Below, piece by piece: positions 1 through 5,986 of a DNA stretch of 5,986 bases. Source of the DNA: a virus (Duplodnaviria; Heunggongvirae; Uroviricota; Caudoviricetes). Where the stretch lies: the IMG/VR virus record IMGVR_UViG_2778261171_000001; one strand, 5' to 3'. The first letter of the stretch is position 1. Every line of letters starts with the position of its first letter. The position numbers and the translations under genes are program-made. The notes beneath the pieces are model-generated. The model was not told the DNA's origin, searched no databases, and worked only from the letters and a program-made list of their open reading frames with translations.

Positions 1-427
1 GAACTGCCGGAGGCGTAGGCCATTCAATATCTGGCGCACCGGAAGTATCGACCAGCTCCAGTGCGTCCAGATAATCCAGCCACAAATTATATTGCGCCAG
101 TTCCTCACCTTTCAGACGACCAATAGCCGCTTTACCTGGCCATTGCTTACCGTGCATATAATTATTGGCTTCATCGATACGAATTTGTTTTTCATTCTTA
201 TTTTTCAGAATAAGTTCTTCTTCAGTCATAGGCGGGGCATCTTCCCAGATGGGCAGGCCATCTGCATGGGAGCGAATTTTGCCTTTCGGTGGATTTTGCG
301 AATATTGATAAAATAATTCATCTGAAACTTCTTTTGCATCTGCTGGCCACGATCCAGCATCCTCATAGCTCTCTTTGTTAATATCTGAAACAAAAATATT
401 ATGTGCTGCACTGTAGAAAAATGTCAT
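1..427 (-). CDS. Tail fiber assembly protein (Tfa, Mu U / lambda Tfa-like chaperone); C-terminal few residues lie beyond the window edge
   Basis: Not in the ORF track because it has no in-window stop. Hand translation of the reverse complement from the ATG at 427..425 gives 142 codons with no stop: MTFFYSAAHNIFVSDINKESYEDAGSWPADAKEVSDELFYQYSQNPPKGKIRSHADGLPIWEDAPPMTEEELILKNKNEKQIRIDEANNYMHGKQWPGKAAIGRLKGEELAQYNLWLDYLDALELVDTSGAPDIEWPTPPAV... The C-terminal segment (W..Y..L..VDTS.APDIEWP..P) matches the conserved C-terminal motif of phage tail fiber assembly proteins as I recall it. The start lies 1 nt after the tail fiber stop (TGA-T-ATG) with a GGGG Shine-Dalgarno-like run about 9 nt upstream. 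Confidence 0.8.
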   Translation of the reverse strand, partial: MTFFYSAAHNIFVSDINKESYEDAGSWPADAKEVSDELFYQYSQNPPKGKIRSHADGLPIWEDAPPMTEEELILKNKNEKQIRIDEANNYMHGKQWPGKAAIGRLKGEELAQYNLWLDYLDALELVDTSGAPDIEWPTPPAV

Positions 428-428
428 A

Positions 429-1166
429 TCAGTAACCCCATGCTTCATAAGAGATTTCAGCGTTCGGTAGCGCGCCCAGCGACGGGCTTCCACCGTTGCC
501 AAGAATGTTCGCCACTCCCCATATCTTCACGCCCGTTCTGCTTAAATTAGAATACATCGCCATGTTGTAGGATGGGACGCCACTTTCTTGGTTGTGCAAT
601 GCAAACCGAACACAAGCATTTGGGAACGCCACTGGGAATGTCATGGTCTGGGGAGTCAAAGAGCTTACTGTTGGGGTCATACCTAAAATCTGAATTAAGC
701 CATTCGCGTAATAATTAATAGTGTAAGTAGTGGTTGTTACTCGACGGACGCTATCCAACGTTACCAGGCGGATGGCTGTGTGAGTGTCCTCATGCATAAG
801 ATAAGGGGCAAGTTCACTTCCTAAGTAGAACCCTGCTTCTTTACAGGTATCACCAATTATCGCGTTGGTTAATCCAAGGTTTTCGAGAGCCGTTTTCACC
901 GTGCCATCCGATTTGATATCGCCAAACGGATTCTTGCGGCTTAACAGCAGCGCGCGAAGCGCGGTAAGTAGCTGGTCGTGCCGCCCCTTATCCAGGCTGG
1001 CACCGGACGCCTCCACAACGCTGCAAAGCTCCTCCTGCAACATGTCAAAGTAGTCATCATCCAGATCGGTGGCAGGCGTGCCGGTCTGGGGGTTACCACG
1101 GGTAAAACCGTTCTTACCCGCGCCGAACTTATCCTTCTGCGCGGTTTTCGTGTCTATACGATGCAT
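429..1166 (-). CDS. Tail fiber protein (short, 245 aa), with a conserved baseplate-proximal N-terminal part and a divergent distal part
   Basis: ORF-track ORF with ATG start at 1166..1164 and TGA stop at 431..429. A GGAG Shine-Dalgarno lies 6 nt upstream (minus-strand reading of 1173..1176). The gene sits between the DUF2313 (gp48-like) gene and the Tfa chaperone, which is the canonical position of the Mu S fiber. The N-terminal region (DDDYFDMLQEELCSVVEASGASLDKGRHDQLLTALRAL) resembles the conserved N-terminal module of Tfa-dependent fibers as I recall it. The distal part is AT-richer than the rest of the operon. Confidence 0.7.
   Translation of the reverse strand: MHRIDTKTAQKDKFGAGKNGFTRGNPQTGTPATDLDDDYFDMLQEELCSVVEASGASLDKGRHDQLLTALRALLLSRKNPFGDIKSDGTVKTALENLGLTNAIIGDTCKEAGFYLGSELAPYLMHEDTHTAIRLVTLDSVRRVTTTTYTINYYANGLIQILGMTPTVSSLTPQTMTFPVAFPNACVRFALHNQESGVPSYNMAMYSNLSRTGVKIWGVANILGNGGSPSLGALPNAEISYEAWGY
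857..890. other. Candidate relic or partial Din-family (Hin/Gin/Cin/Pin) inversion crossover site embedded in the tail fiber coding sequence
   Basis: Forward sequence TTATCGCGTTGGTTAATCCAAGGTTTTCGAGAGC contains the core AATCC-AA-GGTTTTCGAGA. One half matches the hix/gix half-site consensus (…AAAACC NN GGTTTT…) well, by my count 9 of 12 against hixL as recalled from memory; the other half is degenerate at about 5 of 12. It sits at the GC-rich to AT-rich transition of the gene, within codons for ALENLGLTNAI. Confidence 0.25.
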
Positions 1167-1169
1167 GGA

Positions 1170-1754
1170 TTACTCCGGATATTTAAAAATTACGTAGGTA
1201 TGCGACGGGCAGAGTTTGTTAAGCACACATTCGACAACTGTGTCGCCCCAGATACGCAGTGCGGAATCACAGGGATCGCCACATGCCATCCAGGTGGTGT
1301 TGGTGGCGGCTGGCATGTTGACCTGCCAGTAATACCGCCATTCAGGCGCGTTCACAGCGTCAGTACAGGCCGATGAGCAGGTGAACGTGCTTTTGTCGTA
1401 TCGCGTGATGGTGGCATCTGGTCTGCCCAGGGCAGCAAGCTGTGCAAGATAAAAATCCTCGTTGATGCCGCCCGCCAGGTTAACCTTCGCATCCAGTCGT
1501 TGCTGACGCTGGCGAAGGGTCTGTGTTCCTGCGGGAATACATTCATCCGGCAGGCCGCACAGACGCTCCCAGCGATTTATCAGTTCGGTGGTGGTGCGCG
1601 GATCCAGCTCCCGCATCAGGGCATCCGCACGCTGATGAACGCGGGTTAATGACGGTGCCGCACCGGCAATCGCCGGATCGCTGGCTGACCACGCCGGACC
1701 GGGCGGCAGCAGTGCCGACAACAGGCGGATGTAATCATCGTTTGTCACGTCCAT
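1170..1754 (-). CDS. Phage tail protein of the DUF2313 / YmfQ family (Mu gp48-like)
   Basis: 194-aa ORF with ATG start at 1754..1752 that overlaps the upstream gene's stop by 10 nt, and TAA stop at 1172..1170. A GGGGA Shine-Dalgarno-like run lies about 7 nt upstream. Size and position (between baseplate J and the tail fiber) match Mu gp48; the family call is from synteny and recollection, not a search. Confidence 0.75.
1173..1176 (-). promoter_or_regulatory. Shine-Dalgarno sequence (GGAG) for the tail fiber gene
   Basis: Forward ctcc at 1173..1176 reads GGAG on the minus strand, 6 nt upstream of the ATG at 1166..1164. Confidence 0.45.
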
Positions 1755-2803
1755 GAAATCGTCCCCAGAACCGCCAGTTCATTTTTTGCAATGGAGATAT
1801 TTTCCGCCGGTGCAAGCAACTGATGGCTGTATTCCCCGTTCGCACCGGAAATCGCTTCACTGATACGCGACACCTTCAGTTCTCCCTGCGGATAACCATC
1901 ACGCAGCAGGAACGAACGCAACTCCGCGGTGATGGCAGCCCGTATTTCCGGTGTATCCGGCGTCACACGGATATGAAAATCCACCGTATGCGCCACCGGC
2001 CTGAACACATACAAATCAGAGCCTGCCACCGGGGCCAGTGGCCCGATATGTTGTCTTGCCGCCGTTTCCGTTGATTCTTCCGGAATGGGATTAATCAGGT
2101 CACTGCCGGCAATCATCACACCGACAGTCCCCGTTCCCATCCAGTGACGGTATGCCCATGCGCGGGTAATGCCGGGCACTTCTTTAGCCCAGACAACATA
2201 GTCCCCGTCAGCCCCGCCCTGAGGCGTCCAGTAATACCGCTCAATGACGCGGGCGCGCCACGTTTCCAGATCTTCAGTATCAAATCCACCTGTCAGAGTG
2301 TCTGCCACGCCGGAAGACGGCAGACCATTAACCGGCGTGACCAGGATTAATGACGTACCGTCGTCAGCGTTACCGACCGCGCCTGCACTTGAGCAGGCGA
2401 TCGGCACGCGCAGGACACCACCGGCGCTGGTTGCATCGGCAGTTGCCGTGTACTGAACCAGGTCATCGCGCTGAATAACACTCCCGGCGGTCACCTTCAG
2501 GCCATCGCTGACGCCTTCCCAGCGCATATACCCGCTGGCAGTCGTGGCCCCCTTGCGCGGACACCGTTTCATCGCAGCATGTCGCGCCAGCCAGGACTCA
2601 TCGCACAGGTCAGGCAGCATGTTCATTGCCAGATAATCGATGTACCCGTAAACCGTATGCAGCGCCGCCGCATACACCTTTGCCCGCACGTCTTCATCCA
2701 TGCGCCGGAGCGTGTCGCTGACGTCCAGCCTGGCGAATAAATCGTTACGGAGCATACTGATATTTTCTGCCAGCGTCGGGCGCTGAAATTCACTGTCCGC
2801 CAT
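1745..2803 (-). CDS. Baseplate J-like protein (Mu gp47 / P2 gpJ family baseplate wedge)
   Basis: 352-aa ORF with ATG start at 2803..2801 and TGA stop at 1747..1745. The start overlaps the gp46-like gene's end by 14 nt. Length and position match Mu gp47; the protein looks like baseplate J family members as I recall them. Confidence 0.85.
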
Positions 2804-3218
2804 GCGTTATCGCACTCCACAGATCATCAAAAGAAATCATTACCGGTCCGTCACGACGCCAGAGGGTGATACTGTTACCCAGCTCATTAATCCCGGTGCG
2901 GCGGATATCCAGATCAATACGGGACACCACGCCGTCATCAATCATCCATTGCAGGCATTCGCGGGTATATCCCCTTACCGTCTGCACCAGTTGATTGGTC
3001 AGTTTGCTGCGCTGAAGCAGCCACAGTCGGGAGCCGTAACGGTCATTCTGTACCGCAGGCCAGGTATCCCCCCACCATCCCATCGGGACGTCGGCGTTGT
3101 CATCAGGCTCCGCCCGCCGCCAGGTAAACAGGGAAATCACCACGGCGCGGGTCAGCGGATCCAGCGGTGCGCTGGCGCAGGTGCGTTTACCGTTCACCGT
3201 CAGCCACAGTTCCATCAT
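2790..3218 (-). CDS. Phage GP46-family baseplate protein (Mu gp46-like)
   Basis: 142-aa ORF with tandem ATG ATG at 3218..3213 and TGA stop at 2792..2790. The start overlaps the spike gene's stop in an ATGA arrangement. Size and position between the spike and baseplate J match Mu gp46. The exact start (first or second ATG) is uncertain. Confidence 0.7.
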   Translation of the reverse strand: MMELWLTVNGKRTCASAPLDPLTRAVVISLFTWRRAEPDDNADVPMGWWGDTWPAVQNDRYGSRLWLLQRSKLTNQLVQTVRGYTRECLQWMIDDGVVSRIDLDIRRTGINELGNSITLWRRDGPVMISFDDLWSAITHGGQ

Positions 3219-3763
3219 GCCTCCATCGCTTTATCCGGTTTGTCGGTGTTACTGCCCTGACCGTTCTCTCTGTGACGATGCCCGTTATAGGCAAGCCGCA
3301 TCGCTGACATGGTGGTACCGCCGGAGTCGCACAGGTCTTTCACCTGTCCGGTCACTTCCAGGTCCATTTCAAAACGTGCTCTGGGCGCATTGCGAAACGT
3401 GATCGTTTTACCTGCACCGTCCACCACGATCCCCTCCCGGGTCAGCGTCACAGACTGCCCCTGATCGTCATAGACAGCCACCTCACCCGTCTGCAGCCCT
3501 TTCAGGCGGTAGCGCCGGTCCGACACCGTAACAACCACCGCATGAGAACGGTCGCCATCCGGAAACAACACCACCGCTTCCGCACCGCTGTTTGCCCTTG
3601 CGGTAAAACCGTAGGGTTCAAGATGTTCAATCCCGGCTTTGGGTTCACCGGCAATCAGGGACACATCCACGGTCTGACATTTCGTGGCGGCACTGATGCT
3701 TTTCACCACTGCCCGCCCAATCAGGCCGAGAAGTTGTCGCTGCATGGCTTCAATCGTCCTCAT
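3215..3763 (-). CDS. Baseplate central spike / baseplate assembly protein V family (Mu gp45-like)
   Basis: 182-aa ORF with ATG start at 3763..3761 and TGA stop at 3217..3215. An AGGAGG Shine-Dalgarno lies about 10 nt upstream (minus-strand reading of 3774..3779). The start overlaps the hub gene's stop by 1 nt (TGATG). The protein has a beta-rich composition and an H-R-H motif near the C-terminus, consistent with a spike protein; size and position match Mu gp45. Confidence 0.8.
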   Translation of the reverse strand: MRTIEAMQRQLLGLIGRAVVKSISAATKCQTVDVSLIAGEPKAGIEHLEPYGFTARANSGAEAVVLFPDGDRSHAVVVTVSDRRYRLKGLQTGEVAVYDDQGQSVTLTREGIVVDGAGKTITFRNAPRARFEMDLEVTGQVKDLCDSGGTTMSAMRLAYNGHRHRENGQGSNTDKPDKAMEA

Positions 3764-4842
3764 CAGAACGGGTCCTCCTGTACTCTGGCTTTTTTCTTTT
3801 TCCGCGCGCCGGGGTCTTCGGGTTCAGGCAGATAAGCATCAGGCGGGCCGACACGGATTTCCGTCAGGGTGCCGTTCTGGTCCTGAGTAAACGTGACTTC
3901 CGAAACAAGCAGTTCGGTATTGTCGAAACCACAGACCGGATCGAAGACAATCACCCGCTGGTTGGGCTGCCACAGCGTACCGTTACCCTGTCGCCAGCCC
4001 TGAACCACATAGGTGGTTTCATCCGTCCGCGCCGCCCGTTGTCGGGCTTCAAAGTCCGCACGGGCAATACAGCCTGCCCCCGTAGCCTGCCCTGTCTGCC
4101 TGATATACATCGGACGGTAACGGGCAATAAATGCGTCCTCTGTGCGGGCCCGCAGCGCGGTGGTGGTGGCCTCACCGAAATCATCGTCGTTTCCGGCACG
4201 CTGCCCCGCCACCTGGTAAACAGAAAACCGCTCCCGGATACTCTTCTCCGTATCACAGGAAAGGATATTTTCCCCAAGTACCAGCGCGGTATGTGCCCGC
4301 GTTGAGCCAATACCGCCAATCACCAGCCTGCCGTGCGGGTCGTCGTAAGCCAGTGCCTGCTGCTGACCGAGTATTTTGTTGATCACCTCAATCACCGTTT
4401 CGCCGTGATCAGGCTGGACATCAGGAATAACACCCGACGGCGCACTGTTGTTCACCACCTCAATGCCGAAAGGCGCAGCAAGCGCCTGCGTAATCTGTAC
4501 CAGCGATCGTCCGTTAAACTGTGTCGGTTCGGCTGCACAGTCAATCAGGTCAGCGGTCAGACTGCGTCCGGCAATACCGGTGCTGACCGAACGGGCATCG
4601 TAACGAACGGGCGTCGCCTCCACCCAGCCGGTGATCACCAGCTCATCACCAATCAGCACCTCCACTTTTGAACCGTTTTTAATGCGCGGCTGAAGCGTGG
4701 TGATACCCTCATCTCCCGGCCACTGTCGGGTGATCTCCACACTGAAATCCCGCGCCAGCCGTTCAATACCGGCACCGATGCGTACCGATGTCCAGCCATT
4801 CCACTCCCGGCCATTTACCCGTAGCGTGACATTGTCGTTCAT
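3763..4842 (-). CDS. Baseplate hub protein, Mu P (gp44) / late-control-D-like family
   Basis: 359-aa ORF with ATG start at 4842..4840 overlapping the upstream gene's stop (ATGA), and TGA stop at 3765..3763. Size and position immediately downstream of the DNA-circulation-like gene match Mu P. It has a lysine-rich C-terminal tail (ARKKKKARVQEDPF). Confidence 0.8.
   Translation of the reverse strand: MNDNVTLRVNGREWNGWTSVRIGAGIERLARDFSVEITRQWPGDEGITTLQPRIKNGSKVEVLIGDELVITGWVEATPVRYDARSVSTGIAGRSLTADLIDCAAEPTQFNGRSLVQITQALAAPFGIEVVNNSAPSGVIPDVQPDHGETVIEVINKILGQQQALAYDDPHGRLVIGGIGSTRAHTALVLGENILSCDTEKSIRERFSVYQVAGQRAGNDDDFGEATTTALRARTEDAFIARYRPMYIRQTGQATGAGCIARADFEARQRAARTDETTYVVQGWRQGNGTLWQPNQRVIVFDPVCGFDNTELLVSEVTFTQDQNGTLTEIRVGPPDAYLPEPEDPGARKKKKARVQEDPF
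3774..3779 (-). promoter_or_regulatory. Shine-Dalgarno sequence (AGGAGG) for the spike gene, embedded in the 3' end of the hub gene
   Basis: Forward cctcct at 3774..3779 reads AGGAGG on the minus strand, 10 nt upstream of the ATG at 3763..3761. Confidence 0.5.
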
Positions 4843-5986
4843 TGCACTGGCACCTTCAGAGGGATCACCGGCACAAAGCCGGGATGCGTAATGGCATTAC
4901 GCCGGATAATGTCCGCGTCACGCGCCGCGTTATCAAACCAGGTCGCCGCCAGCACCAGCGCGGGTAAAACCTCATCCGGTGTGCGCTGAATGATCCGTGC
5001 AGACTGTTCAAGGCGCGTGTTGATATCCGCATTCAGATCTGCTTTCACCCGGCGCAGCGCCAGAAACAGCGCATCACTGGTTGTACGGGACAACTCCTTA
5101 TCAATTGCCGTATTCAGTGTGTCGCGAATGTCAGTCAGTTCTTCCCACGTCGGCAGGTCAACCGTGTTTTTCACCGCCGGTGCATTGTTCAGTGCCGGAT
5201 GCGTGACGGAAGGCCAGCCAGTGCTCTGCGCAGGTGTTGTTGCCTGCCCCACTGCGGAATTCTGCATCACCGCGGAAGTTGTTGGCGCAGGCAATCGGGT
5301 GATGGCATACGCCGCTTCGCTGATTGCGGTCGTACGAAGGGTGCTGGCAACCACATTACGCTGCTGCGTAGCCGTGGCGGTGGTTTTACTGTCCGTTTTC
5401 CAGACGCCGCGCGGTTGCAGATCGCTGCCGAGGCTGACACCGGAAAGCGTTTTGATCATGGTGACCAGGTCGCTGGCGTTACCATAAAGGCGTTTCCCGG
5501 TACGCCACATTTTCTGCACCTGCTCAACGAAATTTTTGCCTGACGATGGCGGCGGCAGAAGTACCGAGATATCCCCCTGCAACAGCCTGGCGGCATCCGA
5601 TACGGCAGAATCCACCACTTTCATCGCATCAGAAACATACCCCAGCATTATGCTGGCATTACCGATAACGTCGTTCTGCACGAAATCCGCCACACCATCG
5701 ATACTGAAACCGCTGAAGCTGTCACTGATGCAGTCATCCAGTGCAGAACAGGATGACATCAGCGTCTGCGCCGTCGCCGCACCTGATGTGGGGTAAGAGA
5801 GTTCTCCTGCTTCGACAAACTTCAGGTCAAAGCGGACAATACGCCCTTCACTTTTCGATGTGCTGACCCGAACTTCCCCGGGCTTTGTTGAATAAATCGA
5901 ACTTTTGCTGAGTTGAAGGATCAGATCACGCATCTTCCCGACAACGCAGACCGTTCCGTGGCAAAGCAAAAGTTCAAAATCACCAA
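4839..5986 (-). CDS. DNA circulation protein family (Mu N / gp43-like), C-terminal ~380 codons only; 5' end is beyond the right edge of the window
   Basis: The reading frame is open from the window edge to the TGA at 4841..4839. The M at 5969 in the ORF track is actually a TTG codon (forward caa at 5967..5969), and the frame continues without a stop to position 5986, so the true start is off-window. Assignment is by synteny (the gene immediately upstream of the P-like hub gene) and size; I do not recognise the sequence itself with certainty. Confidence 0.6.
   Translation of the reverse strand, partial: GDFELLLCHGTVCVVGKMRDLILQLSKSSIYSTKPGEVRVSTSKSEGRIVRFDLKFVEAGELSYPTSGAATAQTLMSSCSALDDCISDSFSGFSIDGVADFVQNDVIGNASIMLGYVSDAMKVVDSAVSDAARLLQGDISVLLPPPSSGKNFVEQVQKMWRTGKRLYGNASDLVTMIKTLSGVSLGSDLQPRGVWKTDSKTTATATQQRNVVASTLRTTAISEAAYAITRLPAPTTSAVMQNSAVGQATTPAQSTGWPSVTHPALNNAPAVKNTVDLPTWEELTDIRDTLNTAIDKELSRTTSDALFLALRRVKADLNADINTRLEQSARIIQRTPDEVLPALVLAATWFDNAARDADIIRRNAITHPGFVPVIPLKVPVQ

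Follow-up and report, generated by a model that had tools for sequence, protein, structure and literature searches.

The analysed stretch of DNA (5,986 nt, hereafter the window) comes from an SfV/SfII/SfIV/e14-like E. coli prophage with a Mu-type tail and corresponds to its baseplate and fibre operon, which lies on the minus strand. Its GC-rich backbone (1170–5880, minus strand) comprises, by Pfam assignment, the genes of Mu-type gp48 (YmfQ), gp47 (baseplate J), gp46, gp45, gp44 (hub) and a truncated gp43 (DNA circulation). The backbone is 97–99.7% identical to that of SfV-like phages and prophages, and 1,061 complete E. coli genomes contain at least 80% of the window. The end of an IS903B element (IS5 family) is inserted in the gp43 gene at 5881–5986, outside the fibre cassette. 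It was recognised by a homology break and an IS match: divergence from genome N9 and all other relatives is complete from 5881 onward, and IS903B ends match positions 5868–5986 at 95–97% in 1,947 genomes. The prophage is defective here, as IS903B interrupts gp43.

The fibre gene (429–1166, minus strand) encodes a protein of 245 aa and is directly followed by the gene of a Tfa chaperone, which starts at 427 (minus strand) and runs off the window start, with 142 of its 145 aa inside the window; this is the layout described in the initial annotation. The Tfa start codon lies 1 nt beyond the fibre stop (TGA-T-ATG). Tfa scores 97 bits for Pfam family PF02413 (Caudo_TAP), whose cut-off is 22.1. Neither the fibre nor Tfa is covered by an NCBIfam model, and the sole match of Tfa among PDB sequences, a carbonic anhydrase, was rejected as spurious.

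Fibre tip and chaperone

The fibre consists of a constant and a variable part. The constant N-terminal part (aa 1–97; 876–1166, minus strand), defined by homology and presumed to attach to the baseplate, is 97–98% identical at the nucleotide level to phages SfV, SfII, SfIV and SfI; SfV orf21 has the same 97 residues with few substitutions. Matches to PHROG tail-fibre families are restricted to aa 1–100. The N-terminal part also shows weak similarity to residues 41–114 of Mu S (E = 0.007), ending at an ENL motif, while the Pfam search gave no match in the fibre to PF12571 (Phage_tail_fib), the N-terminal domain of the long Mu S and P2 H fibres. The variable distal part, from Gly98 to Tyr245 with the stop codon (429–875, minus strand), is presumed to be receptor-binding on the basis of PF21882 and a structural model. 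It makes up 60% of the protein (aa 98–245), so its earlier description as the distal two-thirds was about right. The fibre had also been called unusually short, which holds against Mu S but not against SfV orf21 (216 aa) or the fibre of strain JS01 (215 aa). SfV and JS01 too have short gp53-like fibres.

Within the distal part, a linker or repeat unit of about 40 aa (aa ~98–140) is followed by a Gp53-like C-terminal β-sandwich tip (aa 154–244), which matches PF21882 (Gp53-like_C) with 34.8 bits, above the gathering threshold of 24.9. A single-sequence AlphaFold2 model of the whole fibre (pLDDT 37.6) was discarded. The alignment-based AF2 model of aa 98–245 has a pLDDT of 81 and is good only from about query residue 41, with values of about 85 or more at query residues 41–148. 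A Foldseek search with the modelled tip gave the feet of R2/R1 pyocin fibres (6ct8, 6cl6, 6cxb) and gp53 of phage AP22 as best matches (E from 1e-4 to 4e-4, 4mtm at 1.9e-4; probability 1.0; about 108–115 aligned columns). According to the model, the tip has the Gp53-like_C fold, a β-sandwich like that of the R-pyocin foot. From fold and position only, it is presumed to be the receptor-binding domain, and we infer that its ligand is a surface carbohydrate or LPS.

The tip is absent from 50,697 phage records, where the best tblastn match is 34% identical. A word-indexed protein search gave only relatives at least 85% identical, whereas an exhaustive search exposed a gap down to 42%: outside its own cassette family, the closest tip is at most 42% identical. 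The earlier statement that the receptor specificity is not yet characterised thus stands. A frameshift in the fibre of N9, where PGAP annotates an stfP pseudogene and a gp53-like ORF, was considered and rejected, since N9 equals the window over 429–1166 and the ORF is intact.

Tfa is likewise divided. The N-terminal domain (aa 1 to ~86; 170–427, minus strand) is cassette-specific, and the stretch encoding it is present only in the six genomes that have the fibre tip. In TfaMu, fibre binding is the task of the non-conserved N-terminal domain (North et al. 2019, summarised in PMC9608196); by this analogy and by its distribution, Tfa aa 1–86 is presumed to be fibre-binding. The conserved C-terminal domain (aa ~87–142 of 145, with the last three codons outside; 1–169, minus strand), assigned by homology and Pfam, is encoded by thousands of Tfa genes in E. 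coli prophages. Matches at 90–97% cover window positions 1 to ~170 in more than 2,000 E. coli genomes and end there. As judged from these alignments, the cassette ends inside Tfa, at the border between the variable N-terminal and the conserved C-terminal domain.

Composition and distribution of the cassette

The cassette (170–876, 707 nt) has a GC content of 44.1%, and any 707-nt window within 880–5986 has a GC fraction of 0.539–0.607; the difference from the remainder of the window is far beyond chance (chi-square p = 3e-11). The genes from gp43 to gp48 (1170–5969) have GC of 0.558–0.582 each. The fibre gene as a whole has 0.511, with 0.564 in the proximal part (876–1166; GC3 0.67) and 0.477 in the distal part (432–875; GC3 0.486). 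The in-window portion of Tfa has 0.432; the N-terminal part (170–427) is the most AT-rich piece (GC 0.384, GC3 0.291), and GC climbs again to 0.506 in the C-terminal part (2–169). Overall, GC3 is 0.29–0.49 in the cassette and 0.61–0.67 elsewhere. Composition and codon usage are therefore not uniform but differ by sub-part. The GC step reported in the initial annotation is real, although its figures were somewhat overstated and its boundaries are sharpened here: the 60-nt lines within 1–900 range from 0.32 to 0.58 and not from 32 to 45%. In SfV, GC drops at the matching point (distal fibre 0.471, orf22 0.396, operon 0.574). As the step is also found in JS01, that is, in both relatives checked, it is not special to this window.

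Homology with SfV, SfII, SfIV and SfI (97–98%) covers positions 874–5880 and breaks off at about 874, so that in the comparison with SfV-type phages the distal part varies and fibre aa 1–97 are kept. The cassette was found in six of 5,426 complete E. coli genomes, at 94–99.9% nucleotide identity. The tail modules bearing it in these six carriers are SfV-like, of another Mu-like kind, P2-like and DUF2612-type, and the fibres bearing the same tip range from 154 to 498 aa. Homologues of the fibre do not keep to the same baseplate partners; the same tip instead occurs on unrelated tail modules. The composition step, the SfV break at 874 and the six carriers support the original proposal of a horizontally exchanged receptor-binding module.

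The cassette homology begins at CC TT GG in the six carriers; in N9, LWY24, 1368KP, KMi029 and Z1323CEC0006 it runs from CC-TT-GGATTAACC. The same TT|GG fusion joins it to Mu-like, P2-like and DUF2612-type fibres. The P2-like and DUF2612-type fibres share a left flank of about 8–14 nt, with the joint on the same dinucleotide. In LWY24, the joint is found 63 nt upstream of the core. Carrier L006, of the DUF2612 type, shows the TT|GG joint, and the 6-kb flank examined there contains no invertase or second cassette. Judging by the L006 flank and the LWY24 joint, exchange does not always depend on the invertase.

Crossover site, invertase and partner site

A 26-bp crossover site of the Din family (pix type) lies at 864–889, as indicated by a pixL match and the homology break. 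On the plus strand, it reads GTTGGTTAATCC AA GGTTTTCGAGAG, with the core dinucleotide (876–877) inside fibre codon Leu97. It is thus a dix-type site with an AA core, located in the fibre gene at the joint of the constant and variable parts. The e14 site pixL is TTCTCCCAAACC AA GGTTTTCGAGAG (Table 3 of PMC3241671); the outer half and the AA core of the window site agree with it at 14 of 14 positions, the inner half at 5 of 12. By our own count, the inner half GTTGGTTAATCC fits about four of the seven dix consensus positions. In SfV and JS01, this outer half is paired with the canonical inner half GGTTTGGGAGAA, reported as the inverted repeat of e14 (PMC12529663). A search for the full palindromic dix site (TTCTCNNAAACCNNGGTTTNNGAGAA, up to three mismatches) gave nothing in the window or in N9, because the inner half is degenerate; a looser scoring scan did recover 864–889. 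Strong degeneracy of one half is also seen in functional natural sites such as hixR (Table 3 of PMC3241671). Inversion may still work with the non-canonical inner half-site of the cassette. In the initial annotation, the graft point had not been recognised as a DNA-invertase crossover site.

The partner site and the invertase both fall beyond the window. Contig L009, from sample ERR13159733, encodes an identical 245-aa fibre, a second cassette and an intact invertase of 182 aa with Resolvase and HTH_7 domains, which matches Mu Gin structures at E = 1e-56. The partner site on this contig, GGTTATAAAAAAGG-TT-GGTTTGGGAGAA, is inverted and lies about 1.9 kb off. An identical fibre together with an intact invertase and a partner site makes it probable that the window cassette is the expressed half of a host-range switch. 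The window itself contains one cassette; in N9, L007 and L009 the sequence continues with an opposed cassette encoding Tfa′ (197 aa, tail to tail with Tfa, 29-nt overlap) and Sv′ (156–160 aa). In JS01, the two inverted sites are both present, along with two opposed Sv+Tfa cassettes and a frameshifted recombinase pseudogene.

One of the six genomes, L004, has the same invertase and flank as L009 (99.98% over 4 kb) and carries the window cassette in the silent position, joined as GGTTATAAAAAAGG-TT-GGATTAACC at the same TT; both silent-site halves are non-canonical. The two loci are not strict isomers: at the nucleotide level the tail modules show no relationship, and the second cassettes are not the same. 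Recombination instead of inversion could therefore have given rise to the two orientations. The partner site is absent from N9, as judged by an inverted-repeat search, and from L007; IS elements occupy the region (IS1 and IS5 in N9). In N9 and most contigs with the exact fibre (L007, L008, L010–L014), an IS5-like element stands in place of the invertase and, consequently, the orientation is fixed in these sequences. The switch is probably inert in the genome from which the window comes, because IS903B interrupts gp43.

A candidate invertible segment and its relatives

In this SfV/e14-like prophage, host range would be set by an invertible segment of the e14 P-segment/Mu G-segment type, and window positions 1–876 are very probably its expressed half. 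In such a system, the lineage-constant fibre aa 1–97 would dock on the baseplate and the exchangeable aa 98–245 would form the receptor-binding tip, which would travel with the fibre-binding N-terminal domain of its own chaperone (Tfa aa 1–86); the conserved Tfa C-terminal domain would close the far side of the cassette. Cleavage at the central AA/TT would be by a serine invertase of the Gin/Pin type, whose gene lies outside the window in intact relatives. Inversion of a segment of some 1.9 kb would then fuse one or the other of two opposed tip-plus-Tfa cassettes to the constant part. The crossover site and the conserved Tfa C-terminal domain may also serve as seams for cassette exchange between unrelated phages, and exchange at the seam would account for the lower GC of the cassette. 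We infer that an invertase, and not homologous recombination, moved the cassette between lineages.

Formation of a plain mosaic joint by homologous or microhomology recombination between co-resident prophages is unlikely. The site would then be there only by way of the (E/Y)NLGL or YLGL motif, and the cassette would not be, or would no longer be, invertible. The constant part and the Tfa C-terminal domain (90–97%, more than 2,000 genomes) do offer ample homology among SfV-like prophages, and the NLGL/YLGL motif recurs at module borders of many fibres; the degenerate inner half-site, the upstream joint of LWY24, the L006 flank and the loss of the invertase in most carriers point the same way. 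However, the P2-like and DUF2612-type fibres are joined at the same dinucleotide in spite of their short shared flank, and the cassette is also joined, again at this dinucleotide, to the invertase-proximal outer half-site by an intact Gin-like invertase, which is the expected product of inversion. As for the degenerate half, it has its counterpart in hixR-like functional sites.

It is still less likely that the fibre and Tfa are kept for the benefit of the host, as an adsorption-blocking anti-phage protein. There is a precedent in e14, where P-segment inversion creates StfE2, a protein with a gp53-like domain that blocks T2 adsorption (PMC12529663), and the fibre ORF has remained intact while IS elements hit gp43 and the invertase region. 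Nothing here, however, indicates expression or defence, the IS insertions may be recent, and the cassette occurs in P2-like and Mu-like prophages that look complete and in which an ordinary role suffices. Scarcely credible is an explanation of the low GC by relaxed selection and decay of a dying prophage, or by an effect of amino-acid composition, rather than by foreign origin. The prophage is indeed defective in its source genome, and the neighbouring cassette in N9 has been struck by IS1 and IS5; but the fibre and Tfa ORFs are both intact, identical copies of the 245-aa protein are recorded in 237 assembly blocks and on 126 contigs, the GC difference is strongest at third codon positions, the cassette is highly conserved across unrelated tail modules and the viable phage SfV has the same step. 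The pN/pS between cassette alleles is about 0.4 (small counts), which suggests purifying selection on their sequences. Decay was rejected as the cause of the low GC, being contradicted by the intact ORFs, the GC3 pattern and the SfV step.

An extension of the invertible-segment interpretation is rather doubtful, if less so than the mosaic joint: the non-canonical inner half-site GGATTAACCAAC might act as a functional quasi-site, at which resident Gin/Pin-type invertases would flip the tip and also capture it between unrelated phage genomes (Mu-like, P2-like and DUF2612-type). If so, site-specific recombination, not homology, would be the vehicle of cross-lineage host-range exchange. The tip itself may bind a receptor that has yet to be assigned to any phage.

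The design is already familiar, and its one uncharacterised element is this tip; with an architecture known since Mu G and e14 P, the locus provides no new mechanism. It provides a clean, base-pair-resolved case of host-range change in temperate coliphages, in which a cassette of tip and chaperone domain, bounded by the crossover site and the Tfa C-terminal domain, is reused on at least four kinds of tail. The natural fusion points, Leu97|Gly98 in the fibre and about residue 86 in Tfa, could be used to equip tailocins or phages of the SfV, Mu or P2 type with grafted receptor-binding tips. As the tip is missing from the phage records searched, its receptor could be worth identifying.

Among known systems, the P segment of the remnant prophage e14 in E. 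coli K-12 (stfP-tfaP / tfaE-stfE, pinE) has the same gene order, from jayE/ymfQ-type baseplate genes to the fibre and two opposed cassettes. The likeness extends to the constant 5′ fibre part, the gp53-like tips, the segment size of about 1.8–1.9 kb and the outer half-site with core; in PGAP (NCBI) annotation, the constant part is labelled ‘stfP’ and the gene beside it ‘ymfQ’. The window differs in its inner half-site (GGATTAACCAAC as against GGTTTGGGAGAA in e14), in the extra unit of about 40 aa in the tip and in a tail operon that is complete except for the interrupted gp43. Phages SfV, SfII, SfIV and SfI share the baseplate genes and fibre aa 1–97, and SfV also the outer half-site, the position of the GC drop and a short gp53-like fibre. 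SfV, however, has another tip and another Tfa N-terminal domain (orf21 fibre, orf22 Tfa), and downstream of its single cassette come a terminator and gtrV, an invertase and a second cassette being absent.

The Mu G segment (S/U, S′/U′, Gin) and the P1 C segment (Cin) follow this principle too: alternative C-termini of the fibre, each with its Tfa, are flipped by a Din serine invertase at a 26-bp intragenic site. Mu S, of about 500 aa, has another shaft and tip, and Mu gix has a GA core and other half-sites (PMC3241671). The best structural matches of the tip, the R-type pyocin fibre feet and gp53 of Acinetobacter phage AP22 (4mtm), likewise belong to PF21882; identity to them is 17–23% with a TM-score of about 0.5 for a model that is a monomer and not a trimer, and their ligands are not transferable to this tip.

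Tail genes and the compositional step

All real genes of the window are on the minus strand, according to ORF calls and Pfam searches. They encode a truncated DNA-circulation protein of the Mu gp43 type (4839–5969, no Pfam match within the window), the baseplate hub gp44/P (3763–4842, GpP-like domains), gp45 (3215–3763, Phage_Mu_Gp45), gp46 (2790–3218, GP46), gp47 (1745–2803, Baseplate_J), gp48/YmfQ (1170–1754, Phage_Mu_Gp48), a 245-aa fibre (429–1166) and the tail fibre assembly protein Tfa (from 427 to beyond the window start; Caudo_TAP, 97 bits). The Tfa start codon is 1 nt past the fibre stop codon, and 142 of the 145 aa of Tfa are inside the window. By megablast, the window groups with the E. 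coli and Shigella prophages of the SfV/SfII/SfIV/SfI/e14-like group; among 5,426 complete genomes of E. coli, 1,061 contain 80% or more of it, and E. coli N9 matches it at 99.7%. Within 1–5880, N9 differs by 20 substitutions, 14 of them clustered in 300 nt at 2060–2353 (baseplate J/gp47 gene); this cluster looks like a small recombination patch in an otherwise near-identical operon.

The initial annotation described an AT-richer cassette on a GC-rich operon. Computed by region, GC is 0.558–0.582 (GC3 0.61–0.66) from gp43 to gp48, 0.564 (0.67) in the proximal fibre (876–1166), 0.477 (0.486) in the distal fibre (432–875), 0.384 (0.291) in the N-part of Tfa (170–427) and 0.506 (0.43) in its C-part (2–169). 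The 707-nt core, 170–876, has a GC of 0.441, and same-size windows elsewhere are all at or above 0.539 (chi-square p = 3e-11). The step is real, with the direction and approximate boundary correctly described; the GC values quoted for single lines had the right direction but were somewhat selective, since lines in 1–900 span 0.32–0.58. The step is common to SfV (tail operon 0.574, distal orf21 0.471, Tfa gene orf22 0.396) and the related strain JS01 (0.574, 0.476 and 0.465, respectively), so it is not peculiar to the window. The entire JS01 invertible segment has a GC of 0.47–0.50, and the window's cassette is just somewhat AT-richer than its SfV and JS01 counterparts. The backbone of a DUF2612-type carrier (L006) is similar to the cassette in composition (GC 0.43–0.45), a likeness that may, speculatively, hint at the cassette's origin.

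The crossover site and a probable invertible segment

SfV, SfII, SfIV and SfI match the window at 97–98% over 874–5880, where homology ends; the stretch 170–900 is found in just six of the 5,426 complete E. coli genomes. In these six carriers, cassette homology starts at a common point, ...CC TT GGATTAACCAACGCG, in the middle of a Din-family recombination site of 26 bp (864–889). The plus strand of this site reads GTTGGTTAATCC AA GGTTTTCGAGAG; e14 pixL was published as TTCTCCCAAACC AA GGTTTTCGAGAG (PMC3241671, Table 3). The outer half and AA core agree at 14 of 14 positions and the inner half at 5 of 12. The core (876–877) is inside the codon of Leu97, in the motif A-L-E-N-L-G-L, and the variable part is Gly98–Tyr245. 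SfV orf21 and the JS01 fibre combine an outer half identical to that of the window with the canonical inner half GGTTTGGGAGAA; this is the inverted repeat that PMC12529663 gives for the P segment of e14 (1,797 bp). In N9 (contig L001, 8429–9166 = window 429–1166), NCBI's pipeline PGAP splits the fibre into an 'stfP pseudogene, missing C-terminus' and a 122-aa 'gp53-like domain-containing protein'. A frameshift was considered and rejected: N9 DNA is the same as the window over this range and the 245-aa ORF is intact. The split is an artefact of annotation that stems from the mosaic joint.

The right-hand boundary of the cassette is inside Tfa, at about 170 (approximately aa 86). Between this point and position 1, matches of 90–97% occur in over 2,000 E. 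coli genomes. The position of the boundary fits the known domain logic of Tfa, in which fibre-tip binding is the task of the variable N-domain and trimerisation that of the conserved C-domain (North et al. 2019, as summarised in PMC9608196).

In JS01, the site in the fibre gene is paired with an inverted one 1.8 kb away, TTTTCTTAAACG TT GGTTTGGGAGAA, with two opposed cassettes, Sv–Tfa and Tfa′–Sv′, between the sites; the recombinase gene directly outside the segment is a pseudogene. In an index of public assemblies, 237 blocks contain the window's 245-aa fibre in exact form. One contig carrying it, L009, has an intact locus made up of the fibre, a 145-aa Tfa, the opposed Tfa′ (197 aa) and Sv′ (160 aa, Collar domain), the partner site GGTTATAAAAAAGG TT GGTTTGGGAGAA and an invertase, a 182-aa Resolvase+HTH_7 protein that matches 3uj3 and 4m6f, structures of Mu Gin, at E = 1e-56. 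Most other carriers (L007, L008, L010–L014 and N9) have an IS5-like element in place of the invertase side, so that the orientation is fixed. The two opposed Tfa genes meet tail to tail with a 29-nt overlap (L009 8149–8177; L001 7990–8018, just outside the window start), so that one piece of DNA serves as the 3′ end of each chaperone gene.

In strain 1368KP (L004), the window's cassette is in the silent position beside the invertase, joined as GGTTATAAAAAAGG TT GGATTAACC, and it is a canonical cassette that is joined to the fibre. An alignment of eleven junctions found the outer and inner half-sites to re-assort exactly at the invariant TTGG, which, on this comparative evidence, would be the product expected from inversion at the central dinucleotide. 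The invertase and the yciI–tonB-side flank of L004 (6702–10702) and L009 (9202–13202) are 99.98% identical over 4 kb; their second cassettes are different, and so are their tail and baseplate modules, which have no megablast-level similarity. The mosaicism of these prophages therefore turns on the invertible segment. We infer that the window's cassette is the variable cassette expressed from an invertible host-range segment of the e14 P or Mu G type, joined at a pixL-type crossover site.

Exchange among tail modules

Copies of the cassette, 94–99.9% identical in nucleotide sequence, are present on several unrelated modules: the SfV-like module of the window and N9, a different Mu-like module in 1368KP, a P2-type H fibre of 498 aa accompanied by an intact invertase in KMi029, and DUF2612-type baseplates in LWY24 and Z1323CEC0006. 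In an exhaustive HMMER search, the tip turned up on fibres 195–396 aa long. The earlier proposal of horizontal exchange of the receptor-binding module is thereby supported and sharpened, with the joint placed at a pixL-type site. Sequence is conserved on both flanks of the cassette, so related prophages can exchange it by homologous recombination. Among unrelated fibres the common left flank is just half-site-like (8–14 nt), which suggests site-specific or microhomology-mediated joining. In E. coli LWY24 (L003 ~6771 = window ~940), the joint is 63 nt upstream of the core and 63 nt of the SfV-type constant part came along; this event did not use the crossover site. No invertase or second cassette was found within the 6 kb of L006 flank examined. 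One protein from the representative search (P0061, 396 aa) is a direct fusion of about 290 N-terminal residues of the gp43 DNA-circulation protein with the final 108 aa of the window's fibre tip; its source genome evidently carries a deletion removing gp44 to gp48 and the fibre base.

The fibre tip and comparison with known systems

The Gp53-like_C domain occupies aa 154–244 of the fibre, above the Pfam threshold. An AlphaFold2 model (148-aa query, 46 homologues) has a pLDDT of 81, with residues 41–148 mostly above 85. The sole significant Foldseek matches in the PDB are foot domains of R2-/R1-type pyocin fibres (6ct8, 6cl6, 6cxb, 6cl5) and AP22 gp53 (4mtm), with E-values of 1e-4 to 1e-3 and TM-scores of about 0.5. 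These pyocin feet are lectin-like and bind LPS; by analogy, a carbohydrate or LPS receptor is a reasonable guess for the tip. Between the joint and the gp53-like domain (aa ~98–140, window ~750–875) is a ~40-aa unit with the motif GDxCxxAGFYxGSxxxPYxxH, which matches no Pfam family, is modelled poorly as a monomer and is tandemly repeated at least three times in some longer fibres (P0064–P0066). Among 1.84 billion representative proteins, 27 match the tip at E ≤ 1e-3; eight are the cassette itself and the next best is 42% identical. The best tblastn match among 50,697 phage records has 34% identity over 61% of the query. These values bear out the view that the receptor specificity is uncharacterised. 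The databases already contain the 245-aa protein under the name 'tail fiber protein [Escherichia coli]'. The pN/pS of cassette alleles is about 0.4, from small counts.

Window positions 5881–5986 are the end of an IS903B (IS5-family) element inserted in the gp43 gene, which encodes 442 aa in intact relatives; the window's ORF is left with 376 aa and begins at a spurious TTG. This copy of the prophage can probably not assemble tails. In a recent paper, inversion of the e14 P segment is reported to give rise to a gp53-like protein, StfE2, that blocks T2 adsorption (PMC12529663); in view of that finding, a host-beneficial role of the intact fibre in the defective prophage is conceivable, though unlikely.

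The design is well known; the cassette contributes a new allele whose inner half-site is non-canonical. In having one degenerate half, its site resembles hixR, a natural functional site (PMC3241671, Table 3).
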